A DNA stretch of 64,000 nucleotides from a virus: the IMG/VR virus record IMGVR_UViG_3300030060_004838, positions 1 to 64,000 of that record. The stretch is one strand, 5' to 3'. This document shows, piece by piece, positions 5,512 through 64,000 of the stretch (positions are counted from its first letter, which is position 1; the number at the start of each line of letters is the position of its first letter). Both the position numbers and the translations under genes were made by a program. Below the pieces are notes generated by a model. It was not told where the DNA came from, ran no database searches, and saw only the letters and a list, made by a program, of their open reading frames with translations.

Positions 5512-6905
5512 ACCACCCCACTTTCAATACTGTCCATCAATTGCATCTTACAATTATCATGGTATTTAACTACTACTTCAGGGTCTATATTATATTTCTC
5601 AAATTCCTTTGCGCCCTGTCCCCTTGAGTCTTTCCAATTTTCATATTTAATTAGTTTAAATATTTCCTGTAATCTTGGTTTTGCCCATTCTGTTTTCTTG
5701 TGATTTTTCTTAATTCTAATTGCCTCTTGAATTAATTTACCCTGAGCCTTTTTCATTCTTAAATGTGGTAGACATTTTTCTAAAATAGCATTAATATCAT
5801 TTTGACTGTAAAAATTTAGTCTGTGTTGGCTTCTATTATTCTCTCCTACTTTTTGGTCTAAGTGTAATCTACCACATTTTAATTCAGATTCAAGTTCTTG
5901 GAAAAATGCTTTACCTCTTTTACCCGTAGCAATCATACCTACTCTTGGTGCTAAAGAAGAATCCATAGTAATAAAACCGTCTGAATCAATAAATCCTGCA
6001 ACATAAGAATATAAGTCTTTTTTAATTAGGGGCTTAACTAAATAGTATTCATTGTCTACCTTAGTAGCATCTAACTTCATTAACATTTTAGATATAGATT
6101 GAGGGGTAGATATTTTTGATTGGCCGTCTGTTAGCCTCGAATGTATTTCGTTTGAAGATAGCCCTTGATTATTACAAAGAATTTCTTTTACACTTTTTTC
6201 TATCATTTCCTTTTTACTTTTTCTAACAGATTGATGTGGAATATTTTTTAGTAATTTTCTTAATTCTTTTTTACTTTCATTTAGAATAACACATTGTTTT
6301 GAATATTCTGTTCCGTAATCTAAACTTTTCTTTTCTAAATCGCTTTCCCACATTTTACAACAAAGTTCTATAATTTTACTTCTCGTTTCACCATCTTTAA
6401 TGTTATGTAATTTTTGAATTTGTGAAGGATTATAACCTAATCTACTAAATCCTAATTGATAAGGTTTTAACCAATAAACTGAATCTAAACTTTTTTGTAC
6501 ATATTTTTCATATGCTGTAATTAAATAATCTATACCTTTTGTTAGTTTATCTTTAGAATCACCCTTTAATTTTCTTCTCATTCCTCTTAATTCTTTAACT
6601 AAATCAGGAATATTTTTATCAGCAACTATTGGTTCAATAGGCAACTGAGTAATATAAGATGTTGCTTCAGATAAATTAATTTTTAAAGTTTTAGATATTT
6701 CTTTTAGTATTTCTACTTCATCTCCATATTGCGTAGTAATCCATGTTGATACATTAGATTTACCAAATGCTTCTTTTATTTTTTCTTTAATAGGTGCAAC
6801 AGATTCTTCTAACATTTCTTGTTGCTGTTTAACTCTTTTAATTTCTTCGACATCTCTTTCTAATTCTTCGACATCAAGTTCATCTTGTTTAAATATTAAT
6901 ACCAT
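5508..6905 (-). CDS. Coiled-coil/wHTH protein with a C-terminal LAGLIDADG endonuclease domain
   Basis: YVAGFIDSDGFI LAGLIDADG helix, then ..LKCGRL..RLNF..LPHLRMKK; likely start MVLIFKQD. Confidence 0.8.
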   Translation of the reverse strand: MVLIFKQDELDVEELERDVEEIKRVKQQQEMLEESVAPIKEKIKEAFGKSNVSTWITTQYGDEVEILKEISKTLKINLSEATSYITQLPIEPIVADKNIPDLVKELRGMRRKLKGDSKDKLTKGIDYLITAYEKYVQKSLDSVYWLKPYQLGFSRLGYNPSQIQKLHNIKDGETRSKIIELCCKMWESDLEKKSLDYGTEYSKQCVILNESKKELRKLLKNIPHQSVRKSKKEMIEKSVKEILCNNQGLSSNEIHSRLTDGQSKISTPQSISKMLMKLDATKVDNEYYLVKPLIKKDLYSYVAGFIDSDGFITMDSSLAPRVGMIATGKRGKAFFQELESELKCGRLHLDQKVGENNRSQHRLNFYSQNDINAILEKCLPHLRMKKAQGKLIQEAIRIKKNHKKTEWAKPRLQEIFKLIKYENWKDSRGQGAKEFEKYNIDPEVVVKYHDNCKMQLMDSIESGVV

Positions 6906-8313
6906 AAAAACCACCCCCTTTCTTCGGTGAAACAGTAGGAGAATTAAACAATCCACCACTATCAATATCTATAAATGCATCGGTGAATGTTTTTGTAGCG
7001 TAGTTTGCTAAAGCAAGAGCAATTACAATATCATCATGCGCCCCCACACCTTCAATTTTACCATGTGCGTTAATTCCAAAAGCACCTAATTCTTGTGTAA
7101 TAGCGTTAGTTACACTTTTAGATTTTTCATTCTGTGTTGGTAAAATAAGTTTTCCATTGTCTATATTCATTTGTAAATTTAAAATTATTTCTTCCTTTTT
7201 CTTTCTACTCATAGTGAATTCCTTTACGGGGAAATCAGAAATATTTTTCAATTCCATAGCGAAGGCTTTAGCAAAGGTATTTGTTTCTATCATAACAATC
7301 TCGGGTTTGTATCTTCTACACAATTCCATTATGTGATTGATATGTTCTCGGAAATCAAGACCCTTTGCTCTAAACATATGCACAACCTGTTTATTCATAT
7401 TTTCATCAACCTCTAAGACCATCATTACAGTATAATCACCATTTGCGGAAATAGCAGGGTCATATCCTATGTAATATTGAAAACCCTCTCTCGCAACGCT
7501 CTCAAGCGAAGCATAGGGATTCTTACAGGCTTTAATTGCATCAGGGGCAAAAAGCATAGTATTGGTACTGATAGGAACACAAAGGTATTCTCTTGTAAAT
7601 TTAGATGACCCTATTTCTATTTTTCTTTCTTCTAACATTTTAAGACTCCAGCGATTAGGCCAAAGTGCTGAACCGTCTTGTTTGATTGCAGGGTATCTTT
7701 CAACATTGTATGCGGGGTTTTCTTCTAACTGTACAAATATATCTGTATAGGTAAAAGGAGTTCCTACCATTCTTAGAGAGGCAGTATGGTGAAGTGTAGG
7801 AATCATATCTCCCCAAAACCAATCTGTAACTCTTTGAATAGCCGTCATACTAAACTCTTTCAATGGGTCATCAATGATAATTTCTTGGGGGTGCAAACCA
7901 CGAATCTGAGAACCTACTGAACGCTCTAATATTTCATTACCATTAGTTAAACGCATAGCCCCAACTGCCCAACCCCCTCTCGGTTTAAACTTCTTTAATT
8001 GTGGAATATTAGTGAACATTCTATCTATGTCTTTCATATGTACCATTGTTTGTTTATGGTTTGAAGAAATGTATAACATTTGATATGGTGGTTCTTGAAA
8101 ACATAATTGATATACACACCATGAATGAAAGAAAACTGATTTTCCGTGGTCACGGCTACAAATAATTACTGTGCGTGAAGTATTATTTACAAGGTCTAAC
8201 CATTCCTGATGAAAGTCGGCTAACTCATATCCTAATACCTTTTCAAAAAAATAGGGAAAGTTTCCTTTAGACATTTCTAAATCCATTTCTGTAAGTAAAT
8301 CCATTATACTCAC
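6889..8313 (-). CDS. terL: Terminase large subunit
   Basis: Walker A CSRDHGKS, Walker B EIIIDD, coupling motif VGTP, RNaseH-fold nuclease YIGYDPA..DYT..ETN..HDDIVIALALA. Confidence 0.92.
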   Translation of the reverse strand: MSIMDLLTEMDLEMSKGNFPYFFEKVLGYELADFHQEWLDLVNNTSRTVIICSRDHGKSVFFHSWCVYQLCFQEPPYQMLYISSNHKQTMVHMKDIDRMFTNIPQLKKFKPRGGWAVGAMRLTNGNEILERSVGSQIRGLHPQEIIIDDPLKEFSMTAIQRVTDWFWGDMIPTLHHTASLRMVGTPFTYTDIFVQLEENPAYNVERYPAIKQDGSALWPNRWSLKMLEERKIEIGSSKFTREYLCVPISTNTMLFAPDAIKACKNPYASLESVAREGFQYYIGYDPAISANGDYTVMMVLEVDENMNKQVVHMFRAKGLDFREHINHIMELCRRYKPEIVMIETNTFAKAFAMELKNISDFPVKEFTMSRKKKEEIILNLQMNIDNGKLILPTQNEKSKSVTNAITQELGAFGINAHGKIEGVGAHDDIVIALALANYATKTFTDAFIDIDSGGLFNSPTVSPKKGGGFYGINI

Positions 8314-16469: not shown

Positions 16470-17888
16470 TTATCTTCTCCTTAAAAATCTTCCAGCATCA
16501 GGGGCTTCCGTTCCTTGCCTTTGATTTTGATTTGCTAATCTTCTACCTTCATCTATTTTGTTTTTAATTTCTTGTAAAATTTGTAAAGTTAATGGTACTT
16601 TATCTTGATTATATCTATTTACTACTCTATTAGCAAAATAACTTTTGTTTTTTCTTGCCCCTGTTTTTTGTCCATATTGTCTATCTGTATCTTTAAAGTA
16701 TTTTTTTGCTGACCTATCTTGGAATTTGACACCTATTCCTTTTTCTATCTCATCATTTTTAAGAATATTTTGCCAATTAGTATTTTCTATTTGTAATTCA
16801 CCTTGTTGTTTCAAAACTAATCCGGGTTTTGATGTACCTTCTTTAGCCTTTGGAGTTTCATATGTCTTTACTTCTTCACCTAAAATTCTTAAAACTTCTA
16901 CAATAGTTTTATTTAAAGCAAGATTATTTTTTGGGAATCTTAATTTTACATTTGTTAGTTTTTCAACACCTTCTACTCTATCATATCCCTTAGCAAAATT
17001 TAGAAGTTTTGCTTCTTCTTCATTTCTTATCGCATAACTTTCATTAGTGAATGCAGCATTTAATCTATCTTTCATAGGTGCTCTTGATTTACCAGCAGGA
17101 TAAATATTAGGATTTTGTAATACTTCAATTACTTTTTCTTGTACACTTTTAATTTGTGCCAATTGTCTTGGACCTGCTGAGTTATTAAAAATAGCAATTC
17201 TATTACCATCACCCATTTTAATTTTATCTACTCCCTTTAGGGCTTTTCTTGCTATGGATAAAATACCGCCCTTACCCTCATCTGTTTCTCCTTCTCCTGT
17301 TATGGCTTGCCATAATGGAGGTCTTGCTTTCCCTGTACTTTTATTAGACCATTCATCTTTTGCAGTAGCGATTTTTATTTTACTATTAGGTTTATTTTTA
17401 TTAGCCCACTCAGCATATTCATTATATGCTTTTGTTCTATAATGACCGTAGACCTTTCCTCTTGTAATATCAGGCTCTTGTGGGTCATCAGTTTCATTGA
17501 ATTCTATAACTGTATCAAAAGGAATATTTCTTGGATTCCATTTACCTTTATCTCTTGTTAAAACATTTAACATACCATTTATTGCTTTTTCTAATTGCAT
17601 TCTATGTTCTGTTTCAATTGTATCTCCATCTAATATTTCTGTTAGGGCTTCTAATAAAATACCTAAACCTTCAATACTTCTTGCTTGGTCACGGGCATAT
17701 GTAGCATCACCATGACTTAGTACTGTTTCTAAAACAGTTTTAGGTTTATTTCCTCTTTTTCCTCCTACAATTCCCCATTCAGTACCTTTATTCCACTTAA
17801 CTTTCCAAGCGTCATAATCTCCCTTGATAGCACCAACATCAAATGTTTGGTCTACATTATCAAAATCTGTACCTTCAAATTTACTCAT
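16470..17888 (-). CDS. Hypothetical virion-block protein
   Basis: Likely start MSKFEG; internal NWQNILKN tag near the C-terminus. Confidence 0.65.
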   Translation of the reverse strand: MSKFEGTDFDNVDQTFDVGAIKGDYDAWKVKWNKGTEWGIVGGKRGNKPKTVLETVLSHGDATYARDQARSIEGLGILLEALTEILDGDTIETEHRMQLEKAINGMLNVLTRDKGKWNPRNIPFDTVIEFNETDDPQEPDITRGKVYGHYRTKAYNEYAEWANKNKPNSKIKIATAKDEWSNKSTGKARPPLWQAITGEGETDEGKGGILSIARKALKGVDKIKMGDGNRIAIFNNSAGPRQLAQIKSVQEKVIEVLQNPNIYPAGKSRAPMKDRLNAAFTNESYAIRNEEEAKLLNFAKGYDRVEGVEKLTNVKLRFPKNNLALNKTIVEVLRILGEEVKTYETPKAKEGTSKPGLVLKQQGELQIENTNWQNILKNDEIEKGIGVKFQDRSAKKYFKDTDRQYGQKTGARKNKSYFANRVVNRYNQDKVPLTLQILQEIKNKIDEGRRLANQNQRQGTEAPDAGRFLRRR

Positions 17889-19147
17889 CACTTTCCACAA
17901 CCGCAGGGTGTCGTTTTATCTCTACAATCTTTACAAGGTTTCTTTTTACCAAACATTCTATTACTAATATTTGGAGTAAAACCAGCATTCGTTGTCATTG
18001 TTGTTCCAAATTCTTTAGATAATAAATCTCTCCAACCGAATTCTCCTGTATATTGCTCGTTAGATTTAAACTCATCTTGAAATTTTCGTCTTGTTTCTTC
18101 ATCTTCTTCACCAAATTCTATTTCAGGTCTGTTTCTCATTTCTTCCGCTTCTTCTTGTGTTGTTTGGTCAGCAACTAATTCATTTGCTTCCATTCTTTTT
18201 TGCATATAAGGATAACGGAAAGTAAAAGCAAAAGCAACAGCACCTGTAAATTCTTTAATTAAACTAACAGTTTCAGATTTTGAAGCAAATCTTTGTACTG
18301 ATGATTTAATTGAATTAGAAATTTCTGCTGGTGTAACATCACTTTCACCGTCATTATCTAAATCAAATAAATCTATTGATGCTTGGTCTTGTGTTATTAC
18401 ATCTTGTAAATATTCATCTATATTAGATAATATTGATTTAACATCTTTTATAACTGTGGATTCTGCCGCACTCCATACATCATTTATAAATTCAGCGGGA
18501 ACTTCACCCATAGGGTCTACATCCATTAATTCAGACATTTCATCATCTTCAACATCAGCGTCAGCAGATGCTCTTACTGTTTTATAACTTGTATCAAATA
18601 TACTACTCATTAATTCTTCAGCCATTTTTAATGCTGCTGAGTAGGTTCTATTATAACCTGATGATGAGTATATTCTTTGTATGTTTGTCATTTCATCATT
18701 AAATTTAGGGTCTTTTGTAATTGCATCCATAAAACCTTCAAGTAGACTATCAATCATTTCTTTAGCAATAGTTACACCTAAATCTTTAATTTGATTTTTA
18801 AGTTGTGAAGGTTCTCTCCTTATAGCCCTAAATCCTCCCTGTTCTTCTGTTGATATATTAAAAGGACCAATACTATCTAACATATCTTCTAAAGGTTGTT
18901 CAAGAGCAACTTTAAACCAATTAACTAATTCTGTTATCTTAGGATTTTTAGGGTCATTTCTAAAATCTTGCATTCTTTTATCTCTTTCCTCACCCTCTAA
19001 TGGGTTACCTTGTTCATCTCTTGTAATAGGTTGCCTATCACTTCTAAAAGGTTCATCAACAAACCCATAACCTTCTATAAAAGCAGTACCATCAGGTTTT
19101 CTAAATTTATCACCATATTCTTTCAATAGTATATTTCTCCAATTCAC
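17888..19147 (-). CDS. WxxILK-tagged acidic protein
   Basis: Starts MNWRNILLKE; second tag GWRDLLSKE; C-terminal CxxC..CxC. Confidence 0.7.
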   Translation of the reverse strand: MNWRNILLKEYGDKFRKPDGTAFIEGYGFVDEPFRSDRQPITRDEQGNPLEGEERDKRMQDFRNDPKNPKITELVNWFKVALEQPLEDMLDSIGPFNISTEEQGGFRAIRREPSQLKNQIKDLGVTIAKEMIDSLLEGFMDAITKDPKFNDEMTNIQRIYSSSGYNRTYSAALKMAEELMSSIFDTSYKTVRASADADVEDDEMSELMDVDPMGEVPAEFINDVWSAAESTVIKDVKSILSNIDEYLQDVITQDQASIDLFDLDNDGESDVTPAEISNSIKSSVQRFASKSETVSLIKEFTGAVAFAFTFRYPYMQKRMEANELVADQTTQEEAEEMRNRPEIEFGEEDEETRRKFQDEFKSNEQYTGEFGWRDLLSKEFGTTMTTNAGFTPNISNRMFGKKKPCKDCRDKTTPCGCGK

Positions 19148-19929: not shown

Positions 19930-20694
19930 CTACCCAAGCAAGACCATTAGATTATTACCCATTGGCATTAATTGGTCTGCTATCATATTTAATTTTCTTT
20001 GAAATACTCTTTCATTAGTAGATAATAACATTGTACTTCTTCTCATTCCTGCGGGTATAAAATCTGTAAATTTAAAACTAACAATAAAAGCACCACTACC
20101 GTCATCATTTACTGGTCCAATATTAACATACATATCATTAGCATATTCACTTTTCCAAAAATTATCTATTATACCATAATATTCATTCTTAGTACCAAAC
20201 CTTTTTACTATTTCTCCCTCTCTTCCTTTTAATGTAGATTTTATCCACTCTAATACTTGACAAGCAATATCTTCATCTTTAAAAGGTATAAACTGAGCAA
20301 ACATTTCTACACCAATTTTTCCATCTAATCTATCGGGTCTATTCTTCGGTACTAATTCTATTTTAAAACCATAATAATACCCATTACCTTCATATCTTAT
20401 GTTATAATCTAAATCCGAATCTCCTTCTACACCATCAAATGCTCTTGACCTAACTATAAGTTCGTCTTGTTCACCGTCATCTCTATGACTTATTATAGTA
20501 CCTGACATAGAATTTAAAGCATCAAATATTTTTGATACATATGATTTCATTCTTGCTATTACTAATTTATGTTTTTCTAAAAGTTCAGCATTACAATCTC
20601 TTTCATCTTTTTCAGGTAATGGTTGTCTTTTGACCTTAGTAGATTGTCTACCTACCTGTATTTGGTCTTTTTTTAATTGTTCATTCCAAGTCAT
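19930..20694 (-). CDS. Tagged single PLPEK-module protein
   Basis: Likely start MTWNEQLKKDQIQVGRQSTKVKRQPLPEKDERDC. Confidence 0.7.
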   Translation of the reverse strand: MTWNEQLKKDQIQVGRQSTKVKRQPLPEKDERDCNAELLEKHKLVIARMKSYVSKIFDALNSMSGTIISHRDDGEQDELIVRSRAFDGVEGDSDLDYNIRYEGNGYYYGFKIELVPKNRPDRLDGKIGVEMFAQFIPFKDEDIACQVLEWIKSTLKGREGEIVKRFGTKNEYYGIIDNFWKSEYANDMYVNIGPVNDDGSGAFIVSFKFTDFIPAGMRRSTMLLSTNERVFQRKLNMIADQLMPMGNNLMVLLG

Positions 20695-21559
20695 GTAATT
20701 CCTCCAATAATTCAAACATTGGTTTATCTAAATTTGGCTCAACATCTATTTTATCCCTTCTTAATGATTCAGAAACTGTACTATATTCTGAGTCTTCTAA
20801 TCTTCCATTATCTACTAAGTTGTCAAGATGTGTTTCTCCTTTAGAAGTTATACTTGGGAAGCCCTCTTTTTTAAAAGTTAAATAACCTTTGCTAATTAAT
20901 CCTACTACTGTTTTTTCATTTTTAGACCACTCTCCAAAAAAGTGCCTCCAAGCATCAGATAGTTTCCAATTAGGATTTCTATTTCTTTTTGACTTTTTAA
21001 GTAATTTTAAACCAATATATTCTCTAAGTTTTACATTTCTAAATGTTTCATAACCATAATATATCCCTAACGGACTATTTCTATTAATAGTAATATAAAT
21101 CCAATTACCATCATAGGTATGAACAAAGTGAACTAATACTTCATGTCTTCCTAAATCAACACTAAATTGACCTGCTGCTAATTTCATTTCATCTCCTTGT
21201 GGTTTCAAAGCCCAACGGTCTGTTAAACCCCAAAATCTAACTAAACCTAATTTGTATAAGTGTCTTTGTACATTTAATTTATTAGCAATAGGGACAGGGT
21301 TCATTCTTTTTAAATCAAAAACACCAATAAAATTTATACTGTAATCACTACTTTGTCTAACTGTTGGGGAATTGTCTAATGATACCATTATAGTATCATA
21401 CTTCCATGTTTTAGAATAAGTGGTTGTTTGTCCACTTTCATCTTTATAATTATTAATTGCTATGGCTTTATCTTTTATATATTTTTTTAATTTATCAGGT
21501 AGTACAGAAAGTGCCACATAAAAATAGCCACCTGAACCTCTCGGTGTTAATTTTTTCAT
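20681..21559 (-). CDS. Hypothetical protein
   Basis: 292-aa ORF, no recognisable motif. Confidence 0.6.
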   Translation of the reverse strand: MKKLTPRGSGGYFYVALSVLPDKLKKYIKDKAIAINNYKDESGQTTTYSKTWKYDTIMVSLDNSPTVRQSSDYSINFIGVFDLKRMNPVPIANKLNVQRHLYKLGLVRFWGLTDRWALKPQGDEMKLAAGQFSVDLGRHEVLVHFVHTYDGNWIYITINRNSPLGIYYGYETFRNVKLREYIGLKLLKKSKRNRNPNWKLSDAWRHFFGEWSKNEKTVVGLISKGYLTFKKEGFPSITSKGETHLDNLVDNGRLEDSEYSTVSESLRRDKIDVEPNLDKPMFELLEELHDLE

Positions 21560-23172
21560 TCTACCCTCTCCAAATTTTCAGCAGGTATTCCACCTTCACG
21601 AACAAATGTAATTGCATTAATTCTAATATCTTTATGAAGGACAGGTTCTTTTAGGTTTTTAGTTCTAACTCCTACAACACCTACATTAGATTCTGGTATG
21701 CCTAATTCCTTTGCCCTTCTTTTAGCAAATTCTAATGCTTCTTCTTTACTTTCAGTTGTATAAGTTATTCTTTCAACATTTCTCAATTCTTTAGGTATGT
21801 GTTTATTACTTCTTGTGCGAGTATAACCTCCTGTAATACCTTCTCTTAATATTCCTTCAATATCTAATGTTCCATGATATTCTGTGATTTCTCCTAATGG
21901 ATTAACTGACTTTTTTAGGTAACTATCTAAATCATCTTGTGAGCCTGCCCAATCTGATGCAATCCCAATAATTCTATCATACATTCCTTCTGTCGTTGAG
22001 TTAAGAATTGATATTATATCTTTTAAATCCGATTCATATTTTTCAGGCTTATATCCTTCTTGTAAATCTTCAAGTATTTTTTCTTTATCTACTACCATTT
22101 GAAAATCTTTAGCAACATGAGTTGTTAATTGTACATTAGATGCCGTAGGCCATTCACTAACTGATTGATTTATATCATACCCCATCTCAGATAAAACATC
22201 AAATGTATTAAATCTGTAATAATCCATATTAAACTCTACATCTTTTTCCCATGTTGTTTTAGACAAAATTGCCAATAAAGCACACGCATCTTTTTCAGAA
22301 ATATTATCAGGTGCGGCATATATATAATCAACCATAATAACATGTCTTTTATCTTCTGGTAATTTTAAATATGGGCACAAGAATGATTTATCATAATTTC
22401 TATGCATGTGTGATGAACCTGTAAAATTATAAGAAAAAGTTTGATTCGTAATTTTATTATCAGCATAATCAACAAAACCATATGCTTTACCAACATCAAC
22501 AAGATAATCAATTTGATTTTCTATCACATCTACTATTTTCCTATAAACTTGAATACATCTTGGTGGTGGTTCATCTTTAACAGGTTTTATTTCTTTTTCT
22601 TTTTCAGGTAGTGGTGTTGTTTTTATTCTTGAAGTTCCTCTTTGTGTAGGTTTTAATTCAGCCTTTTTAATATCATATCTATTAACCATCTTTTGCCAAA
22701 ATCTTATTGATTCTGGTTCAATACTACCCACTATCAAATCAAGTTCGTATGGATTTTCTTGTCTTTCTTCTATTTTTCTTGTAATTATTTTTAGGCTATG
22801 TTCACCTACTGCTAATGCTTGTTTAAATGGTACTTCAATGTTTAATATATTTTCATAAATTTGTTTAATTAATTCATCACCTTTTTCTTTTAACTCATTA
22901 ATTAATTCTTGTACTGCTATTTCTCCAAGCCCTTGTCCTCTAACATCTTCTCTTGTAGCAAAGGTATCTAATAACCAAAATAGTTTATCTGTTCCTTTAT
23001 TATAATCTAAAAATACTGTGGCTCTTACTTTTTTATCTTTAGATATAAATTTAATATTAAAATCATTTTCTGCAAATTTGACTAACCATTCAAAACCATA
23101 TTGGTATTCTCTATCTTCTTCAGGATATTCTTGCCCTACATATACAGGTGCTTTTAGAATATTCCTCCACAT
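21556..23172 (-). CDS. Tagged polyprotein: GNAT acetyltransferase + PLPEK module + ADP-ribosyltransferase-like domain
   Basis: MWRNILKA; GNAT REDVRGQGLG and IRFWQKM; C-terminal YHGT..GILREGI..YTT..ALEFA..GGIPAENL (Tpt1/KptA-type ART fold). Confidence 0.7.
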   Translation of the reverse strand: MWRNILKAPVYVGQEYPEEDREYQYGFEWLVKFAENDFNIKFISKDKKVRATVFLDYNKGTDKLFWLLDTFATREDVRGQGLGEIAVQELINELKEKGDELIKQIYENILNIEVPFKQALAVGEHSLKIITRKIEERQENPYELDLIVGSIEPESIRFWQKMVNRYDIKKAELKPTQRGTSRIKTTPLPEKEKEIKPVKDEPPPRCIQVYRKIVDVIENQIDYLVDVGKAYGFVDYADNKITNQTFSYNFTGSSHMHRNYDKSFLCPYLKLPEDKRHVIMVDYIYAAPDNISEKDACALLAILSKTTWEKDVEFNMDYYRFNTFDVLSEMGYDINQSVSEWPTASNVQLTTHVAKDFQMVVDKEKILEDLQEGYKPEKYESDLKDIISILNSTTEGMYDRIIGIASDWAGSQDDLDSYLKKSVNPLGEITEYHGTLDIEGILREGITGGYTRTRSNKHIPKELRNVERITYTTESKEEALEFAKRRAKELGIPESNVGVVGVRTKNLKEPVLHKDIRINAITFVREGGIPAENLERVE

Positions 23173-23176
23173 AACA

Positions 23177-23287
23177 TCATCTCTTTCTCGGATAGTTTGG
23201 TTTATTTGGTCTTTTCTTTTCCGACTTTTGGCTCGGTTCTCCTTTTTTTCTTTTTATTGGTTTTCGTATTTTATTTTTATTGGGCAA
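23177..23287 (-). CDS. 36-aa Lys/Arg-rich peptide
   Basis: TTG start after GGTGA; MPNKNKIRKPIKRKKG...; not in the ORF track. Confidence 0.45.
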   Translation of the reverse strand: MPNKNKIRKPIKRKKGEPSQKSEKKRPNKPNYPRKR

Positions 23288-23405
23288 TCGTATCACCATT
23301 CATCGCTTCAGGTTTGCCATGTTTAACCCAACATTCTTTACAAAACCCAAAAGGATAATTAGCATCTGTATTATAACAACGACCACAATAAACAAATTCT
23401 TTCAT
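23277..23405 (-). CDS. 42-aa zinc-finger peptide
   Basis: MKEFVYCGRC...FCKECW; not in the ORF track; ATGA overlap with the upstream gene. Confidence 0.6.
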   Translation of the reverse strand: MKEFVYCGRCYNTDANYPFGFCKECWVKHGKPEAMNGDTIAQ

Positions 23406-23893
23406 TTTCTACGCTTCCTTTTCTCTTTAGTCTTTCTCTTTTGTGCGTTGATGAAAGTCCTATAAATACCTGCCGCAGATTTTTTACCCATTTCTCTTGC
23501 CCTTTGTTCCATAGCAATAGCCGCTTGAGTTTTATGTGCATGAGTTCTACTACTTCTTTTTATTTTTGCTACTGAGCGTTTTGCATCTTTTACAGTTTTA
23601 AATCCTAAACCATGTATTGTTCCTTTTGGATTTTCATCTGTATATAAATCTGAATGTTTTTTAGAATTAGCGGGTTGCCCTTTCTTTCTTGGAATTCTTT
23701 TTGCTTTAAGAATATCTTTCCATGTAATAACATCTTCAGATTTTTTATAACCTGAAGCATATGCAGCAGCCGCTTGGCGTTCAGCATCTTTACGATTTTT
23801 ATAGACTTTACCACGCTTACCCCATTTATAGCCGCCTTTCACTTTTCTTATTGGTATATCAACCCCTCCTTTTGAACCAACCATGAAGGCCAT
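23402..23893 (-). CDS. Basic two-module protein with internal TWKDILKA tag
   Basis: PIRKVKGGYKWG..YASGY module, then RIPRKKGQ..HSDLYTDENPKGTI module; true start uncertain. Confidence 0.65.
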   Translation of the reverse strand: MAFMVGSKGGVDIPIRKVKGGYKWGKRGKVYKNRKDAERQAAAAYASGYKKSEDVITWKDILKAKRIPRKKGQPANSKKHSDLYTDENPKGTIHGLGFKTVKDAKRSVAKIKRSSRTHAHKTQAAIAMEQRAREMGKKSAAGIYRTFINAQKRKTKEKRKRRK

Positions 23894-24872
23894 ACTTTTC
23901 TTCTAAACTAAAAGTTCCTTTTCTTCTTTTCTTTTTCTTTCCTCTTTTACCTGCTCGTCTTTTGTAAGTTTTACAGGCTGAACAAGTAGGTCTGCATCTT
24001 CTCTTTCTTCCTTTAGATGCATCTTTTCTTCCACAAGGTTTCGGACCACCTTTATCATTACAAGTTCCGCAAGCAATCCAACCTTTGAATATTTTTTCTT
24101 CCCATGACTTTTTAATATCGCTATCTAAATAAGCATCAGCAATCATTATTCCTATTTCTTCACCTGCTTCTATATCACTTGGATAATGACTTCCCATAAT
24201 TACTCTTGATAATGCTATACCTTCAGCCATATTAAATAATTCATCTTCTTTTTCAGGGTGTTCTTCAGCAAGCATTTTTGCTAAAGCATATGCTTCAATT
24301 GCATGACCACTCGGAAATGCTGGTGTATCATCAGTATCTGTTACAGATTTAATTTTATCTGAAATTTCATAAGGTCTTGGTCTTTTGTATTTCATTTTTA
24401 ATTGCATTGTATAAATATCTACATCTTTAATGAATTGCTCATAATCAATTAAATTAGCCCCTACTATATCTAACATCATTTCATTATTATTTTGGTCTAA
24501 ATCATCTTGAATATCTTTGTCCATTTCATACTTTTCCATTATGTTAAGGACTTCAGATATTTCACTTTCGTTAGAAGGAAAATCTAATTCAGGAAATTTT
24601 ACCTCAAAGGAGGGTTTGCTATTTAGTAATTTTTTTTTACTGTCTGAAAGTTCTTTCATCCATTTAGATTCTGCCTTTTTAACAGAATTACCCCAATTTT
24701 TAGCACCTTTTTTTCTACATTGTACTAATGCGCCACTTGCATATGCCGAAGGCCATTTTTTATATCTTCTTCTAACTTTGTAATAACAGGCATCTTGTTT
24801 TTTACCTGATTTTTGCGTCTTACGCCTACGAAGTTTTTTCTTCTTCGCTTTCAAAGTTTCTTCCCAAGACAT
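23859..24872 (-). CDS. Tagged polyprotein with a central PAP2/haloperoxidase-family phosphatase domain
   Basis: K..KRPRP, FPSGH and SRVIMGSHYPSD PAP2 motifs, flanked by basic Cys-rich modules; junctions VKKA and IKKS. Confidence 0.75.
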   Translation of the reverse strand: MSWEETLKAKKKKLRRRKTQKSGKKQDACYYKVRRRYKKWPSAYASGALVQCRKKGAKNWGNSVKKAESKWMKELSDSKKKLLNSKPSFEVKFPELDFPSNESEISEVLNIMEKYEMDKDIQDDLDQNNNEMMLDIVGANLIDYEQFIKDVDIYTMQLKMKYKRPRPYEISDKIKSVTDTDDTPAFPSGHAIEAYALAKMLAEEHPEKEDELFNMAEGIALSRVIMGSHYPSDIEAGEEIGIMIADAYLDSDIKKSWEEKIFKGWIACGTCNDKGGPKPCGRKDASKGRKRRCRPTCSACKTYKRRAGKRGKKKKRRKGTFSLEEKYGLHGWFKRRG

Positions 24873-24876
24873 TAAA

Positions 24877-25197
24877 TCACCACAATTTTTTACACGCTAA
24901 ACATTTAGGGGTTGTAATTCTACCTTTACATTGGTCGCAATTATGTCTTGCTCTAAAATTTCTTCTTCTCTTTCTACTTCTATGAGTTCCGCCACCACGA
25001 TTCTTTCCTGAACGCTTGTAATTACCATACCCTTTAGCACCCGCATGAATCTTTTTACCTTCATGCGTTAGCATCATAATTTTTTTACCTGCTCTATCAG
25101 AAGGATAAACACGGCCTACTCTCATATCCTCTTTTTTCTTGGGCTTGCGCTTTTTTGTTTTGCGCTTTTTTCTTTTAAGAATATCCTCCCAACCCAA
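24877..25197 (-). CDS. Tagged, very basic protein (putative DNA-binding core protein)
   Basis: MGWEDILKR; KKIHAGAKGY..RRRNFRARH..C motif. Confidence 0.65.
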   Translation of the reverse strand: MGWEDILKRKKRKTKKRKPKKKEDMRVGRVYPSDRAGKKIMMLTHEGKKIHAGAKGYGNYKRSGKNRGGGTHRSRKRRRNFRARHNCDQCKGRITTPKCLACKKLW

Positions 25198-25199
25198 GT

Positions 25200-25451
25200 T
25201 TATTCCTCCTTTAAATAATAATCTCCATGTTCATGTTCAGCCAAATAATCTTTATGGTCTAAAGCATCACTAATAACATACTTCAAATATACTTCTTCAA
25301 AACCTTCCAATTTTTTTCCTGCTTCGATAAAGTTTTTCATTCCAGCGGCACCGCCTTCATCTTTTAAAACTTTTTTAATAAATTTTTCATAGACTTTATA
25401 TTTTTTATTTTCAACGGCCTTTAGTTTTGCCTTTAAAATTTCTTCCCACAT
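25200..25451 (-). CDS. Small WxxILK-tagged protein
   Basis: Likely start MWEEILKA. Confidence 0.7.
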   Translation of the reverse strand: MWEEILKAKLKAVENKKYKVYEKFIKKVLKDEGGAAGMKNFIEAGKKLEGFEEVYLKYVISDALDHKDYLAEHEHGDYYLKEE

Positions 25452-25456
25452 AGTAA

Positions 25457-25777
25457 TCACATATTATTAATTATATTATCATACATAGACATAATCTCTT
25501 TTGTAACTGTATTCCAATTTACATCATCAAGAGAATATCCATCACCTACAAATCTACGACTCCATTCAGCATCCATATTAACTAAGTTTCTTGCATTACC
25601 CCATGTTCTTTGGAATGAATCTCTAATTGTTTTATAATCAACAGGCATACCTAACCTTTTATTCATAAAAGACATAGTTTCTATATGATAAGGGATAGTA
25701 GTGGCTAAAGATTCTTTCATCATATCTAATAATACCTTAGTGGCATCGTCTTCTTTTCTAAGAATATTATTCCACAT
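25457..25777 (-). CDS. Small WxxILK-tagged protein
   Basis: Starts MWNNILRK. Confidence 0.7.
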   Translation of the reverse strand: MWNNILRKEDDATKVLLDMMKESLATTIPYHIETMSFMNKRLGMPVDYKTIRDSFQRTWGNARNLVNMDAEWSRRFVGDGYSLDDVNWNTVTKEIMSMYDNIINNM

Positions 25778-26534
25778 CTTCTTCCCTCGCTTCTAATTCG
25801 ATATTATACCAAATAATTTCGTCTATTACTATGTTATCATCATTTATTAAATAAACATATGCATCATAACTGCCATTAGTAAAACTACCTAAAGACATAT
25901 TTCTATATTCAGCATCTCCATTATAAACATCCCATACATCTATTGAATAGTTATAAGGTTCTTCGTATGTTCCATTAGCATCATATACTAAAAATTGTAC
26001 TTCTACCTGTTGTACTTCATCACAATTAACATCAACATCATATGTAAATTCTAAAGATGTATTTGCAATTTTATCTAAGTAATAATCATAGAATAAAGGT
26101 TCACATTCTTCATAAGGTTCACATGAACCATCATCTACATTTGCTTCAGGGTCATAGTTTTCAGCAGCATCATTTGTACAACCCCAAATCATTTCATCAT
26201 ATTCATTACCTTCATCATCTTCCCAAAACCATTCATCGTCATCTCCATTACCTGCGGGAGTAAGGTCAATAATACCTGATAATTCTAAACCACTTGTTGA
26301 TAGTAGAATGAGTATTGGTATTAGGGCGGTTAATAATTTATGAGTTTTATTTGCCATTTCTGTTGCCCTATCAATTGCTGAAGTATTTTCTTTAATAGCA
26401 TTAGAATTATTTAATTTACCATCGTCAAGTAAATCAGCAATAACATCTCCTTTTGAACGACCTGTTAATTTAGCAATCTCATCAGCATTTTCTAAGGAAG
26501 TCTGTATATCAGGGGTATCACTCATTTTTAACAC
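25767..26534 (-). CDS. Membrane-anchored acidic protein with a GCTN..A.NY...A..DDGSC motif
   Basis: One TM helix (LLTALIPILILLS), motif GCTNDAAENYDPEANVDDGSC, beta-rich C-terminus. Confidence 0.7.
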   Translation of the reverse strand: MLKMSDTPDIQTSLENADEIAKLTGRSKGDVIADLLDDGKLNNSNAIKENTSAIDRATEMANKTHKLLTALIPILILLSTSGLELSGIIDLTPAGNGDDDEWFWEDDEGNEYDEMIWGCTNDAAENYDPEANVDDGSCEPYEECEPLFYDYYLDKIANTSLEFTYDVDVNCDEVQQVEVQFLVYDANGTYEEPYNYSIDVWDVYNGDAEYRNMSLGSFTNGSYDAYVYLINDDNIVIDEIIWYNIELEAREEDVE

Positions 26535-27006
26535 TCCATAGATTTTTCCAAAGTTTATGTTGTTTATAATTTTCTTGTAAATATTGTAATATTTCTTTTT
26601 TACTTGGCGAGTTAAATTTCATACTTTCTGTAATATTATTATATATCATTTCAAATGGTGTATCTTTAGATACGAGATTATCAACCATTGTTTTCCAATT
26701 AGATTTTATGATACTTTTTTTAATTAATCTATATTCTTTAGTTGGTCTACTACTTCTACCCGTAGTAGTTTCTTTAGTAGTTTCTCTACCTTCAGCCCTA
26801 CCTTGTCTAACTAATTTATCTAATACCATTCTTAATTTTAAATTACTAAATATACCTGACATTTTACCTCCATGTCGGGTTTTTAGATTACCTAATACTT
26901 CATCAACAGAATAAAATCTTTCTTCATCTATCCCATATTTTTCAACATAATTTAATTTAGTTGGGGAAAGACCTTTGCCACCTTTTAATATATGTAGCCA
27001 ATTCAT
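26518..27006 (-). CDS. Tagged wHTH-like two-module protein
   Basis: MNWLHILKG; internal LIKKSIIKS junction. Confidence 0.65.
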   Translation of the reverse strand: MNWLHILKGGKGLSPTKLNYVEKYGIDEERFYSVDEVLGNLKTRHGGKMSGIFSNLKLRMVLDKLVRQGRAEGRETTKETTTGRSSRPTKEYRLIKKSIIKSNWKTMVDNLVSKDTPFEMIYNNITESMKFNSPSKKEILQYLQENYKQHKLWKNLWSVKNE

Positions 27007-27048
27007 AGTATTCCCTAAAAAGAAATAAAATAAAAAAACTATTTAAAT

Positions 27049-28347
27049 TTAACGAATACTATCAGGGAAAGTACTTGTGGGTGTATCTTCATAAACAACA
27101 CTTATATTTCCAAATTCTATTTTTATCCTATCAATGCATTGTGTTATTTTTTGCTTTAAATTTTCTTTAAATTCTGCCCATTTTTTATCATCAAACTTCA
27201 ATTTATAATCTTCTTTATAAGTTAAGTTATGTTTTCTCCAATCAAGATAATGATATGGATTATAAGATGCTGGATTCATACCCGTTCTATTCATAACTAT
27301 TTCTATTCCTAAATCATGACCTGTTTCTGAATGAACTTCAGTCATCAATACAAATTGTATAAGCATATCATTACTTCTCATTTTCCCCTGAATAGAAATT
27401 ATTTCCTCTACTGCATAGTGTAGGCCGGTTGTATAATTTTCTGAAAAGTATCTTATTTTTGCTGTTTCTATAAAATGACACCAATCAGAAACAGAAATGT
27501 TATTAAAATATTCAGTATTTCTCCACCATGCAACATAATTTACCTTTTTTCCTGTAATATATTTACTTAATTCCCCTAACTGTAACAACGCTGACCCTAT
27601 TCTAAATTTACAATCGTCATCCTCATCGTCTTTTTCAGGTAATGGAGTCTTTTTAGTTTTAACATTCTGTCTACCAATTTCTACTTGTGATTTTTTTATA
27701 AGTCCAGGAAAAATATTATCACAAGTTTCCCAAGCAAATGAAGGTAATCCATAATTTTTCATAGTTGGACTACCTATTGCTTTAGACCATTCTTTAAATG
27801 CCTTTACCCAACGATTATATGTTTCACACATAGACTTTATTGCTGGTCTTCCACCAACTTTAGGGTTATATCCATCCCATCTTTCATAAGGAATTGTCTC
27901 TCTCCCTACTTGTACATGTTTTGCCATATAGAAATAATGAACAGTTGCTTCAAAATGCGATATTCCCTGACCCCTATCACCAAATAAACCAAAAGAAAAA
28001 GACAATTGTACCCTTTCTTTACCATTATTTACCTTTCCTTCAACCCATACATATGTAGTAATATGGTCTACAAATGAATTTGCTATATGTTCATCTCCAT
28101 TTACAGTAACTTTCATAGTATCTTTAAATTCACACCAATATTCTTCTTTTGGCATATCAAATCTAACACTATCGAATTGAGGCATATACAAAGTAGCATT
28201 AGAATCCCAAGCCGTCTTTAAATTTAAAAAATCATTAATTAGTTTTTCCCAAAAAGGCCAACATTCTTCAGGCTCATCTTTTTCGGGTAAAGCCCTCCTT
28301 CTTGTTTTGACATTTTGCCTACTAACATTAATTAAATTCTTCTTCAT
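27049..28347 (-). CDS. Two-PLPEK-module polyprotein
   Basis: RQNVKTRRRALPEK..C and IKKSQVEIGRQNVKTKKTPLPEK..C. Confidence 0.75.
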   Translation of the reverse strand: MKKNLINVSRQNVKTRRRALPEKDEPEECWPFWEKLINDFLNLKTAWDSNATLYMPQFDSVRFDMPKEEYWCEFKDTMKVTVNGDEHIANSFVDHITTYVWVEGKVNNGKERVQLSFSFGLFGDRGQGISHFEATVHYFYMAKHVQVGRETIPYERWDGYNPKVGGRPAIKSMCETYNRWVKAFKEWSKAIGSPTMKNYGLPSFAWETCDNIFPGLIKKSQVEIGRQNVKTKKTPLPEKDDEDDDCKFRIGSALLQLGELSKYITGKKVNYVAWWRNTEYFNNISVSDWCHFIETAKIRYFSENYTTGLHYAVEEIISIQGKMRSNDMLIQFVLMTEVHSETGHDLGIEIVMNRTGMNPASYNPYHYLDWRKHNLTYKEDYKLKFDDKKWAEFKENLKQKITQCIDRIKIEFGNISVVYEDTPTSTFPDSIR

Positions 28348-30911
28348 TTATTCCACCACATTACTTCAGCAGGTATAATTTCATAATTATCCAACATATT
28401 TTCTACTGCTATGTCACATATATACTTATCTTTTATAGTACCTTCATAGTAATCATCATATAATGTTGCAACAAAACCTATCATACTTTTTTGACTTGAA
28501 TCATGACTATCCATAAAATTGTTTCTCATAGAAGCACTTGTAAATTGACAAGCAAGAACATAATCCTGTCCTTTATATTCAAAGGGGTATTGTTTATCAA
28601 CATAAGTTATTATGATTGAACCTGTTGTAAAAGTTTGTTCACCTGATACTACTTGATTAATCGCCTCTATCATTTTACAACAACAATACTCTTTTAACTG
28701 CCCATCTATTATTTTAAAATCTTCATATTTTAAATCAATAGTAGTAGAAGAATTAGCAACTTTAGCATCTAACAATATTTTCTTAAGTAATACTGCTTTT
28801 CTAAAAGCAATATTTTCCCACCTTGCTACTTCATCTCTACAATCTGATTTTTCTTTTTCAGGTAATGCCTTCCTACGAGTTCTTACATTTTGACGGCCTG
28901 TTTGTATTTGGCTCTTTTTGATAGGAGAACCTAATATTGAATTCCATTGACTTAGAACACTATCTAAATTTAATTCGCTTAGTATCATTTTCATGTGGTC
29001 TTTTTGTTGTACATATAGTTCATTTTCATATGCGAAGCCATAACCCCAACTTACTCTAATAATCCATTTTCCTTTTTCATCATCACCGTCTAACATAAAA
29101 TGACCTATGGTTTGAGTTTTAGGGTTTGTTGCGGCAGCCCTAATACCATAATCATAGCCTGTTCCACCTTTTTCCTTAGTATCTTTTTTATAATATTCTG
29201 TAATACCATTAAAATTATCATCGGGTTTTTCTGACCATAATTCTATTGCTTTACATGCAGACCATTCAGTTATATTTTCAGGACTATCAACTGTTACAAC
29301 AAATTTTGTACTATAAGTAAAAGGTACTGATAAAGTATATTTTGTTGTATTATCATAATCTGAATATTCTGTCTTTAAATCTATCTCCGTGACTTTGTTA
29401 TTATATTTTGAAAATCTGTGATTAGAACCATAAACGGGAGGGTCGTTTAAATTAATATCATATACCAATTGTTTTAATATAGTACCAATAATATCTCTTA
29501 AACTTTCAACATAATCAGCCAATCTTAAAAGTTTAGGTCTACATTCTTCTTCTTCCTTTTCGGGTAGTGGTTTTCTAATAATTTTAGTGTCTTGTCTACC
29601 TTGCGTTCTCAAATCCGCTTTAGTAATAGAGCCTCCATATTCACCTCCCCTATACCAAAGTTTATTTTTTCTAACTTCATCATTCATTTTAATTAAATTT
29701 TCTTGATATTTGGTCATGTAATTAGACTTATTGGGTATTTCTACATCATAATCTCTCTCTAACATACTTAACCATGCAAATAATGTATCAGCATGATGTA
29801 CTAAACCATCTTCATAATAATCCACATTTTCAGTAGATGCGTAACTTGCAATTGAATCTTCTCCAAAAGTATGATAAAGTTCACCATCGTTCAACCAATT
29901 TCTTTTATCAATAAAAGCATGTGCTCTATATATTATTACGCCTTCTCCATCTTTTAATGCCCACTCATGTTTGCAAGCAAAAGTAATGGTAAAATCTTTC
30001 ATTTCTAAATTCATTGTAAATGGAACAGTATTTCCAGCAGTTAAAATTCTTGGCCTCATAATTCCTACTTTATCTTTGTAATTAATATTATTACACCAAA
30101 ATTGATTATCTTTTTTTGATTCAGCACTTATTACATTAAACCTATACTTATCTTTAAATTCCCTACCATAAAATTCTTCTACTATTTTATGTATTTTAGG
30201 ATAACACCTTTCATCATCCTTTTCGGGTAGAGGGGTTCTTTTAGTTTTTACATTTTGCTTAGGTACAGTAATTTGATTCTTTGATATATCACCATCACCT
30301 ACCATGTCATAAAGTATTCTTTGTGCTTGCGTTAAATCTCCTGAACTGTTTTTTATTTTTGTATTAAAGGGTTTCATCTGTTCTAATTTATCAGCGAAAT
30401 TTAAACAGTTTTTACTTGTTTCAAATAATTTTTCTACATACCCTTTAGTAAAAACATTAGGTTCTACTTCCCAATTTATCATTACTGTTCCTAACATATG
30501 TGAAGAATAACCTTCAAAATCTATTTCTGCATACTGCCAAACTCTCCATTTATTAAACCTTTTAGATATATTCCAAGATAGATAAAGTTGTACATTATCG
30601 GTTAAAAAAATATAATACCTAACACTAAATATATCAGAGTCATCTTTAGTATCAGGATGAATTATTAAATTATTATTTCTATCCTTAACCATTTCACACC
30701 AATCTTCATTTGAGAATTTAGAAAGCCAATTACTATCTCTTGCATGTCTTACAGTAGGTCTTTGTATTTCGTTACAATCAGCCCATGCTTGAAATATATC
30801 ATCTATAATTTTATAGCAATCAGGGTCTTCTTTTTCAGGAAGTGGGCTTCTTCTTGTCTTTACATTCTGTTTAGGAATAGTAATTTGATTCTTCAGAACA
30901 TCCTCCCACAT
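28344..30911 (-). CDS. Tagged four-PLPEK-module polyprotein
   Basis: MWEDVLKN, then four ~200-aa units each opening with K[NSA]..[RK]Q.[VT][KR]...[PA]LPEK...C. Confidence 0.8.
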   Translation of the reverse strand: MWEDVLKNQITIPKQNVKTRRSPLPEKEDPDCYKIIDDIFQAWADCNEIQRPTVRHARDSNWLSKFSNEDWCEMVKDRNNNLIIHPDTKDDSDIFSVRYYIFLTDNVQLYLSWNISKRFNKWRVWQYAEIDFEGYSSHMLGTVMINWEVEPNVFTKGYVEKLFETSKNCLNFADKLEQMKPFNTKIKNSSGDLTQAQRILYDMVGDGDISKNQITVPKQNVKTKRTPLPEKDDERCYPKIHKIVEEFYGREFKDKYRFNVISAESKKDNQFWCNNINYKDKVGIMRPRILTAGNTVPFTMNLEMKDFTITFACKHEWALKDGEGVIIYRAHAFIDKRNWLNDGELYHTFGEDSIASYASTENVDYYEDGLVHHADTLFAWLSMLERDYDVEIPNKSNYMTKYQENLIKMNDEVRKNKLWYRGGEYGGSITKADLRTQGRQDTKIIRKPLPEKEEEECRPKLLRLADYVESLRDIIGTILKQLVYDINLNDPPVYGSNHRFSKYNNKVTEIDLKTEYSDYDNTTKYTLSVPFTYSTKFVVTVDSPENITEWSACKAIELWSEKPDDNFNGITEYYKKDTKEKGGTGYDYGIRAAATNPKTQTIGHFMLDGDDEKGKWIIRVSWGYGFAYENELYVQQKDHMKMILSELNLDSVLSQWNSILGSPIKKSQIQTGRQNVRTRRKALPEKEKSDCRDEVARWENIAFRKAVLLKKILLDAKVANSSTTIDLKYEDFKIIDGQLKEYCCCKMIEAINQVVSGEQTFTTGSIIITYVDKQYPFEYKGQDYVLACQFTSASMRNNFMDSHDSSQKSMIGFVATLYDDYYEGTIKDKYICDIAVENMLDNYEIIPAEVMWWNK

Positions 30912-39314: not shown

Positions 39315-39402
39315 GCTAAGGTGGCTGAGTTTGGTTAAAAGCGCAGGGCTTAAATTCCTGTCCAAAAATGGTTCGTAGGTTCAAATCCTACCCTTAGCAC
39401 CA
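39315..39402 (+). tRNA. tRNA-Leu(UAA)
   Basis: Acceptor GCTAAGG/CCTTAGC + A + encoded CCA; anticodon arm CAGGG-CTTAAAT-TCCTG; long variable arm; T-loop GTTCAAATC. Confidence 0.93.
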
Positions 39403-63182: not shown

Positions 63183-64000
63183 ATGGTGTATTTTCCGAGA
63201 GAAATGTGGGCAGGGAGTCTAAGAAATAAAGCAAGAGAAGCGTCAAGAATAGTAGTAAAGAATGAAGAAGAATACAGAAACTTTATACAAATGTATAATG
63301 GTAAAATGAACCTTTTTACATCTGTATATGATTACAAACACTTTACTCCGAATAGAGGATTAGAATATTCTATTATCATTGATAGAATATTTCTTGATTT
63401 TGATGCTCACGGTGATGAAGAATCTATGCCTAAGTTATATCAAGATGTATTGAGAATGCATAATTGGTTATTAGAAAAAGACTATAAACATAATATATCT
63501 TTTTCTGGTAGAGGTTTTCATATATTTGTATATGGTAATGTAGCAAGAACATTTAGACAAGTTAAAGCATTTTTTAATATCTGTTATGATGTTGTAAATA
63601 GAAGTCCTTATCTTGATACAGTTGTTATTAATACGAGTAGACTCAGAAGAATACAAAATACCTTTCACCTAAAAGCGAATCGTTGGTGTATTCCTATTAC
63701 TCATGAAGATTTACTTGCGGGGTTGCCCACAATATATAAACTGTCAAAAGAAGGTAAAAGAAAAATAAAACCTGTTTATTATGGAAACAAATTAGTTGAA
63801 TGGCCTGAAGTCAAAAAGATGGAAACAGCAGATATAGAAATTGATAGTGTTGAAAGTCCTGGAGATTTACCAATTTTACCTTGTTTAAAAAATGCTGTTA
63901 TGTCTGAGAATCCTAATCATAGAGCAAGGGTTCTTTTAGTACAATGGTATAATGAGTTTTTATCTGAATTAATGGTAGTAAAAGATAATTTAGATTGTAG
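63183..64000 (+). CDS. priS: Archaeo-eukaryotic primase (PriS with a PriL/PriX-like C-terminal region), truncated by the window end
   Basis: Not in the ORF track; MVYFPRE.., LDFD, FSGRGFH, RLRRIQNT, then LPCL..NPNHRAR. Confidence 0.85.
   Translation, partial: MVYFPREMWAGSLRNKAREASRIVVKNEEEYRNFIQMYNGKMNLFTSVYDYKHFTPNRGLEYSIIIDRIFLDFDAHGDEESMPKLYQDVLRMHNWLLEKDYKHNISFSGRGFHIFVYGNVARTFRQVKAFFNICYDVVNRSPYLDTVVINTSRLRRIQNTFHLKANRWCIPITHEDLLAGLPTIYKLSKEGKRKIKPVYYGNKLVEWPEVKKMETADIEIDSVESPGDLPILPCLKNAVMSENPNHRARVLLVQWYNEFLSELMVVKDNLDC

Follow-up and report, generated by a model that had tools for sequence, protein, structure and literature searches.

The head protease of phage T4, gp21 (family S77), cuts after glutamate in the motif L/I-x-E, the prohead protease of giant phages cuts at S/A/G-x-E, and gp4 of HK97 cuts the capsid protein after a lysine (K103), with a terminal peptide of the protease serving encapsidation. 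We know of no set of tagged cargo proteins or polyproteins loaded by HK97; the giant phage phiKZ has ejection, or inner-body, proteins like those described below for SPN3US. In T4, a short leader, the capsid targeting sequence (CTS), loads internal proteins into the scaffolding core and is removed by the head protease; the proteins exit with the DNA, and one of them, IPI*, blocks a host restriction enzyme. The internal proteins of T-even phages form a highly diverse set of defence proteins in which only the CTS is conserved (PMC3012670). Reports on the giant phage SPN3US describe many ejection or inner-body proteins that are packaged with the genome, a subset being cut by the prohead protease, and ejected into the cell (PMC5694885, PMC7411985, PMC10052503). 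Here we compare with these systems a family of eight protein modules encoded by four genes in a 64,000-nucleotide stretch (the window, positions 1 to 64,000 of the 95,975-bp virus record IMGVR_UViG_3300030060_004838). Each module starts with a short constant sequence, hereafter the head motif, and continues with a very variable body. All coordinates are window positions unless marked as record.

Our results show that the eight modules are a real paralogous, virus-specific two-cysteine family. A six-frame pattern search found every copy of PLPEK or ALPEK that a sequence-only reading of the window had listed (20608, 22600, 27631, 28279, 28854, 29556, 30219 and 30831), all on the minus strand and within open reading frames, and spread as that reading had it over genes with four, two, one and one copies (Table 1; the open frame of the last one spans 19930-20715). 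The corresponding degenerate DNA pattern matches the window nine times, against 0.08 matches expected, and none of 100 shuffles reached nine; the ninth match, at 63500, lies in a closed, stop-ridden frame. A 45-residue profile of the head motif, run against the whole record, returned the same eight places and no more. When 15 head motifs from the window virus and its nearest relative were aligned, the proposed consensus held, with K, LPEK and C invariant and Q nearly so, and can be written [DG]-[ILV]-x-K / [NS]-Q-I-x-x-x-[RK]-Q-x-[VI]-[KR]-T-x-[RK]-x-P-L-P-E-K-(acidic, 3-5)-C. The eight DNA segments that encode the motif vary freely at synonymous sites, which indicates that the peptide is under selection and that the copies are not recent duplications of DNA.

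The second cysteine of the initial description is invariant in the 49 complete modules that we aligned from the window virus and its relatives. It is one of only three invariant columns in that alignment, together with the lysine that precedes the head motif and the first cysteine (C1), which follows the acidic run. This second cysteine (C2) sits in a helix of the form [acidic]-x-x-[W/F/A]-C, either 32-52 or 63-111 residues past C1; the last module, M8, is of the long-spacing type, and its orthologues are P0008 and a 264-aa open reading frame of L001. C1 and C2 may pair, perhaps as a disulfide. Measured from lysine to lysine, modules have 189-245 residues (22-28 kDa), and the part with M7 and its extra C-terminal domain has 368. 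Head motifs have isoelectric points of 10-12 and bodies of about 5. The bodies are indeed barely alignable: pairwise Smith-Waterman z scores remain below 3, except for M3 and M7 (4.6), and the profile-profile comparison (hhalign) of the seven module types, stripped of their head motifs, gave every pair a probability below 13%.

Structure prediction suggests that this divergence may conceal a common architecture. The AlphaFold2 models of M5 (short spacing; pLDDT 70.9, pTM 0.61) and M8 (long spacing; pLDDT 69.1, pTM 0.67) have the same order of elements, namely a coil for the head motif, helix 1 starting from C1, the C2 helix, an antiparallel beta meander and a long C-terminal helix. In M8, a further beta segment separates helix 1 from the C2 helix. 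We take the likeness as no more than moderate evidence for a shared fold. In both models the stretch from P-L-P-E-K to C1 has a pLDDT of about 80 and runs straight into helix 1, and the preceding N/S-Q-I..K-T stretch scores lower. This fits a predicted structure in which the fold already begins, in conserved form, within at least part of the constant sequence, which would then not be a free handle; a separate handle for docking or ejection, as initially proposed, is possible. Searches with these moderate-confidence models gave nothing above background, either for M5 (best E=0.09 with Foldseek against PDB, best Z=4.9 in VIA wide, best E=0.029 in BFVD) or for M8 (best Z=4.9 in VIA wide). The weak matches to CapZ, WGR and NTF2-like folds that recurred among them were discarded, as these are common arrangements of a sheet plus helices.

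Sequence searches were equally negative within the collections covered. The 855-, 432- and 261-aa proteins match no Pfam or PHROG family, the 855-aa protein has no tblastn match in 50,697 phage records, and the modules have no match in NCBIfam, none among PDB sequences in a profile search, and no usable one in the ESM Atlas. The exception in the module genes is in the 538-aa protein, where residues about 16-101 form a GNAT acetyltransferase cassette (Pfam GNAT, E=8e-5). The C-terminal domain of that protein matches no family, and an ART-like domain considered for it was dropped for want of Pfam or NCBIfam support.

The family is wider than this virus, and its members are arranged differently among relatives. 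The profile of the head motif, searched against 1.84 billion representative proteins, matched 37 of them at E <= 0.001, with one to five head motifs apiece, which is the copy-number variation that the sequence-only reading had suggested looking for. Most single-module proteins start with M-(x)-W-x-[DE]-[IV]-[IL]-K, directly followed by the head motif. In distant relatives the motif drifts (P-L-P-D-D, P-I-P-E-E, L-P-P-K-E, L-P-K-K-K), and a pattern of K, Q, T, P-L-P, acidic run and C1 persists. A strict DNA pattern matched just two loci in metagenomes, and for the distant relative P0014 IMG/VR yielded no locus. The window virus and its nearest relative, G001, both have eight head motifs per genome record (5+2+1 in the latter); three further IMG/VR records have six, as six modules in five tandem genes, and the metagenome contig L015 has three modules in its version of the 432-aa gene. 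Across relatives we thus found one to five modules per gene and six to eight per genome, in single genes or in strings of two, three or five.

Order and context change as well. By similarity of their bodies, M1-M2-M3-M4 match modules m3 (71%), m1 (25%, partial), m2 (41%) and m5 (77%) of P0001, so that the order differs, and the remaining m4 has only the head motif and helix 1 in common with M2. M3-type modules were found in three distinct polyprotein contexts. The L015 homologue of the 538-aa protein, which has 64% identity to it from residue 159 onwards, lacks the GNAT cassette. In G001, the compared 13.5 kb contain no homologue of this gene, and in P0028 a module is fused to an unrelated N-terminal domain of 200 residues. 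The modules behave as independent units. Being beta-rich, repeated and variable, they might recall a known structural repeat, such as a tail fibre or a receptor-binding array, of invariant copy number. We disfavour this explanation as very improbable: copy number varies, no repeat family in Pfam, PHROG or NCBIfam matches, there is no tblastn match in the phage records, and every module has a cargo-type tag or cut site. Furthermore, the module genes lie 5' of the terminase and portal genes and a long way from the tail genes, which occupy about 80-92 kb of the record.

Relatives also bear on the history of the two largest module genes. The ATGA overlap at 28344-28347 is present, and had been taken as a sign that the 855- and 432-aa genes were once a single reading frame of six modules. 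The comparison does not support this, because two relatives keep two separate genes, the second with a complete W-x-x-I-[IL]-K tag: in G001 a stop and a single spacer base separate the first gene from a second one starting with M-W-E-D-I-I-K, and in L015/P0002 the second gene starts with M-W-A-D-I-L-K. Complete tags in both G001 and L015 imply that the two-gene state is shared; to judge from these starts, it is the window virus that shortened the tag of its 432-aa gene to M-K-K. We also set aside a fusion of the two genes by frameshifting, as an ancestral or a current state, since no canonical slippery heptamer was seen on reading the junction and relatives have a stop and a tagged second gene. 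Contigs of other runs show gaps of 39-45 letters in pieces across this junction (27.9-29.0 kb).

The module genes change rapidly, diverging 2-4 times faster than their neighbours. Identity to G001 ranges from 47 to 97% (median 76%) in eleven neighbouring genes and from 33 to 47% in three module genes. In the listed pieces of contigs from four other marine metagenome studies, differences amount to 1.6-4.3% over the flanks (16.3-20.6, 24.9-26.2 and 30.8-31.7 kb) and to 5.3-12.2% over the 855-, 432- and 538-aa genes; these values come from a small sample of contigs rather than from read recruitment, and agree with the comparison of genomes. Two contig joints of other runs, of which one would leave out the 538-aa gene (21497 to 23019) and the other about one module (27476 to 28264), were set aside as too weak, since a single contig shows each of them and one of its sides has only 21-25 letters. 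Between M7 and M8, a 292-aa gene (20681-21559, minus strand) has diverged as far as the module genes have (47% identity to the relative), and has neither a head motif nor a family match.

How might such modules be made and used? A lysine precedes the head motif in all 49 modules, which upholds half of the earlier proposal, that each motif follows a putative lysine cleavage site; the other half, that processing exposes the motif as a new N-terminus, is only plausible. The case for it comes from the virus's own capsid genes, where an HK97-family (S78) head maturation protease fused to a scaffold-like tail adjoins the major capsid protein. Head maturation proteases usually cut the capsid protein, the scaffold and themselves. 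The capsid protein starts with about 28 residues ending in N-L-L-K, followed by A-Y-G, and [LI][LMIT]K stands at this position in 120 of 120 homologues (down to about 50% identity), with varying flanks. Near the N-terminus of the protease, ..[IV]-[LI]-K is found in 115 of 120 homologues, and its scaffold-like part keeps Y-[DE]-[LIV]-[IV]-K-[NED]-x-F in 113 of 120, a motif resembling the tag plus the first residues of the head motif (D-V-L-K-N-Q-I). It is these similar hydrophobic-x-K endings in the capsid protein and in the protease and scaffold that make the processing plausible, and the positional argument is consistent with the lysine being the protease site. We also predicted the complex of the protease domain (residues 1-190) with a 45-residue peptide of tag plus head motif; the score of 0.00 gave no answer and weighs neither way.

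The tag itself, W-x-x-[ILV]-[IL]-K, marks the N-terminus, or a position close to it, in about 13 open reading frames on the minus strand between 13.8 and 30.9 kb; within the 96-kb record the tags cluster on these minus-strand genes, most of them N-terminal and a few internal. This block of tagged genes is kept in relatives, and the internal tags coincide with the gene boundaries of relatives. These facts bear on the idea that tag and head motif are not signals for the capsid protease, and that the genes encode uncut multi-domain late proteins that act in the cell, their N-terminal peptide serving a chaperone, a virus-encoded tagging system or translational control. In its favour, cleavage is purely inferred and the prediction of the complex gave no answer; it leaves unexplained the similar ending in the capsid N-terminus and in two places of the protease and scaffold, the clustering of tags in a late block upstream of terminase and portal, and the exact match of internal tags with boundaries between genes. 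We consider it quite unlikely.

Several observations concern tagged genes other than those of the modules. Internal W-x-x-I-L-K tags occur on the minus strand at about 23722 (gene 23402-23893) and 16775 (gene 16470-17900); in the relative L013 the part behind the former is a separate gene starting with the tag, an indication that genes have fused or split at tags. The tagged protein at 23859-24872 (minus strand) has a PAP2 phosphatase domain (Pfam, E=1e-14) after a very basic segment and is a candidate packaged enzyme. A small tagged protein (24877-25197, minus strand), 91% identical in the relative, continues with R-K-K-R-K-T-K-K-R-K-P-K-K-K and is likely a DNA-binding head protein. The C-terminus of the protease/scaffold reads S-W-[DE]-E-[VI]-N-x-L in 92 of 120 homologues and resembles cargo tags such as S-W-E-D-I-L-K; cargo tags may mimic the scaffold's own capsid-docking peptide.

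Taken as a whole, we find it probable, with moderate confidence, that the modules are capsid cargo released by the protease, which would later leave with the DNA to act early in the host as T4 internal proteins do. The modules would be made as tagged precursors of one to four modules each, carried into the procapsid by the N-terminal W-x-x-I-L-K tag. There, the S78 protease would cut after the invariant lysine (hydrophobic-x-K / N/S-Q-I) and free single modules, which would stay in the capsid, exit with the DNA and act early in the host. Under this mechanism the constant sequence would comprise three consecutive pieces, i.e., N/S-Q-I after the cut site, a short flexible basic linker, and the P-L-P-E-acidic-C1 start of the fold. 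Cutting, packaging and ejection are all inferred steps. Least certain of all is a role of the bodies as host-directed effectors, to which only the turnover, the shuffling and the fusions with enzyme cassettes point.

A number of points weigh against this explanation. Hydrophobic-x-K is a short motif in a lysine-rich genome of 30% G+C, and the argument for cleavage consequently rests on its positional conservation and not on its occurrence. The 432-aa gene lacks the W part of the tag, so that W is not needed for targeting in every case. The homology of the bodies is not demonstrable by sequence comparison, and their shared architecture rests on two moderate-confidence models built from the same mixed alignment, which may have drawn the one towards the other. 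Cutting and presence in the virion are deduced for a virus that is uncultured, and the bodies have no established link to a host target or a defence system.

Modules might also be packaged and processed for a different end, as structural or physical contents of the capsid (inner body, DNA spacing, tuning of pressure, assembly helpers), in which case the divergence of their bodies would reflect weak constraint and not an arms race. The combination of basic head motifs and acidic bodies would suit such a role, as would the fact that in seven of the eight modules no enzymatic domain and no known effector domain is present (Pfam, PHROG and NCBIfam), and the presence of eight paralogues per genome recalls the families of inner-body paralogues of giant phages (PMC5694885, PMC7411985). 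Yet relatives with close capsid proteins differ in the number, order and type of modules, which would be unusual for fixed structural parts, and modules are fused to enzyme-like cassettes, both here (GNAT) and in P0028. We regard a purely structural role as unlikely. Going further than cargo released by the protease, one may imagine a changeable, host-directed arsenal in the capsid, encoded as strings of cleavable cassettes that would be recombined, duplicated and joined to enzymes from one close relative to the next, with the two-cysteine unit, once exposed by the protease, as a new adaptor required for retention in the capsid or for passage with the DNA. We put this forward as tentative and somewhat doubtful; if true, archaeal viruses would gain their first described cargo array of the polyprotein type and their first described family of effectors delivered by a capsid.

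The genomic setting is that of an archaeal virus. Magroviruses rank with the most abundant viruses in the surface ocean; the Poseidoniales, which are their hosts, are uncultured. The window has a G+C content of 30% and two divergent gene blocks: the minus-strand block includes the terminase, portal and module genes (Table 1), and the plus-strand block encodes a family-B DNA polymerase (PolB), an RFC-like clamp loader, an ATP-dependent ligase, a B12-type ribonucleotide reductase (RNR) and a PD-(D/E)XK nuclease. To judge from its gene content and size, this is a magrovirus-type archaeal tailed virus, similar in both respects to the magroviruses of Marine Group II archaea (PMC5434244). A tRNA-Leu(TAA) gene lies within the early/replication block (39315-39402, plus strand). 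A 619-aa open reading frame that closes the record (record 94114-95973, minus strand), immediately upstream of the protease gene, matches an ATP-dependent ligase PHROG (E=6e-28) and is distinct from the ligase of the plus-strand block. Finally, between 22876 and 24143 four marine metagenomes give a summed contig depth 20-200 times as high as in neighbouring bins; this segment holds the 3' part of a 163-aa gene and the start of the PAP2 gene, with a basic domain of the W-P-S-A-Y-A-S-G type that matches phrog_727 and is evidently common to many other abundant marine viruses.

Table 1. Coordinates of the module genes, their modules and head motifs, and of other landmark genes.
Feature	Position	Strand	Description	Basis
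Four-module precursor gene, 855 aa	28344-30911	minus	N-terminal tag M-W-E-D-V-L-K	four matches of the head-motif profile
Module M1	30300-30911	minus	in 855-aa gene	
Module M2	29640-30299	minus	in 855-aa gene	
Module M3	28935-29639	minus	in 855-aa gene	
Module M4	28347-28934	minus	in 855-aa gene	
Two-module precursor gene, 432 aa	27049-28347	minus	shortened tag M-K-K	
Module M5	27712-28347	minus	in 432-aa gene	
Module M6	27052-27711	minus	in 432-aa gene	
Composite tagged precursor, 538 aa	21556-23172	minus	N-terminal tag, GNAT, second putative cut site ..I-K-K, M7, C-terminal domain	
Single-module gene, M8	19930-20694	minus	likely start M-T-W-N-E-Q-L-K-K at ATG 20694; module 19933-20688	
Head motif 1	30777-30911	minus	tag, putative cut-site K, N-Q-I..K-Q-N-V-K-T-R-R-x-P-L-P-E-K, acidic run, C1	head-motif alignment
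Head motif 2, internal	30165-30299	minus	D-I-S-K just before	head-motif alignment
Head motif 3, internal	29502-29636	minus	S-I-T-K just before; one residue longer, a variant common to orthologues (P0018)	head-motif alignment
Head motif 4, internal	28800-28934	minus	P-I-K-K just before	head-motif alignment
Head motif 5	28225-28347	minus	N-terminus of 432-aa gene	head-motif alignment
Head motif 6, internal	27577-27711	minus	L-I-K-K just before	head-motif alignment
Head motif 7, internal	22546-22680	minus	D-I-K-K just before; insert of 11 residues between P-L-P-E-K and C1	head-motif alignment
Head motif 8	20554-20688	minus	Q-L-K-K just before	head-motif alignment
Large terminase	6889-8313	minus-strand block		
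Portal	3868-5511	minus-strand block		
ATP-dependent ligase	48741-50228	plus-strand block		
HK97-family (S78) head maturation protease	record 92765-94072	minus	fused to acidic, coiled scaffold-like tail	PHROG; PF04586 on homologues
HK97-type major capsid protein	record 91420-92733	minus	adjoins protease gene	PHROG major head protein; PF17236 on homologues

The closest parallel to this locus is found in T4, where IPI, IPII, IPIII and Alt also combine diverged or unrelated bodies with a short conserved N-terminal leader, the CTS, and as in T4 the genes encountered here are near head genes. The differences are nevertheless considerable. We found no sequence homology with the T4 proteins (PHROG and Pfam, and tblastn in the phage collection); the protease is of the HK97 type (S78), with a proposed cut after lysine, and the host is an archaeon. 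The T4 internal proteins are single, small and basic, whereas the modules are acidic, have about 200 residues and are often strung as polyproteins, and they share a second, family-specific N-terminal unit with two cysteines. By this analogy, the modules would be a working analogue of the T4 internal proteins and not members of that family. Giant phages differ in other ways: the genome here is smaller (96 kb), no homology with their proteins was found, the proposed cut motif is another one, and the modules form cleavable tandem strings, in which number and order vary among close relatives. As for HK97, the protease is of the same family (PF04586, S78) and adjoins an HK97-type capsid protein, but is fused to an acidic, coiled scaffold-like tail. 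In the accessible text of two magrovirus papers, the protease is named only as a marker gene and the word polyprotein appears in neither report (PMC5434244, PMC11706807). If our explanation is true, the module family would mark the proteins that the virus injects first, and its rapid turnover would place it at the front line of the conflict between virus and host in a major group of marine archaea. It would also extend the loading of cargo by an address tag plus a protease, as in T4, to archaeal viruses with an HK97-type protease, and would add to it a polyprotein layout that is rare in tailed viruses.

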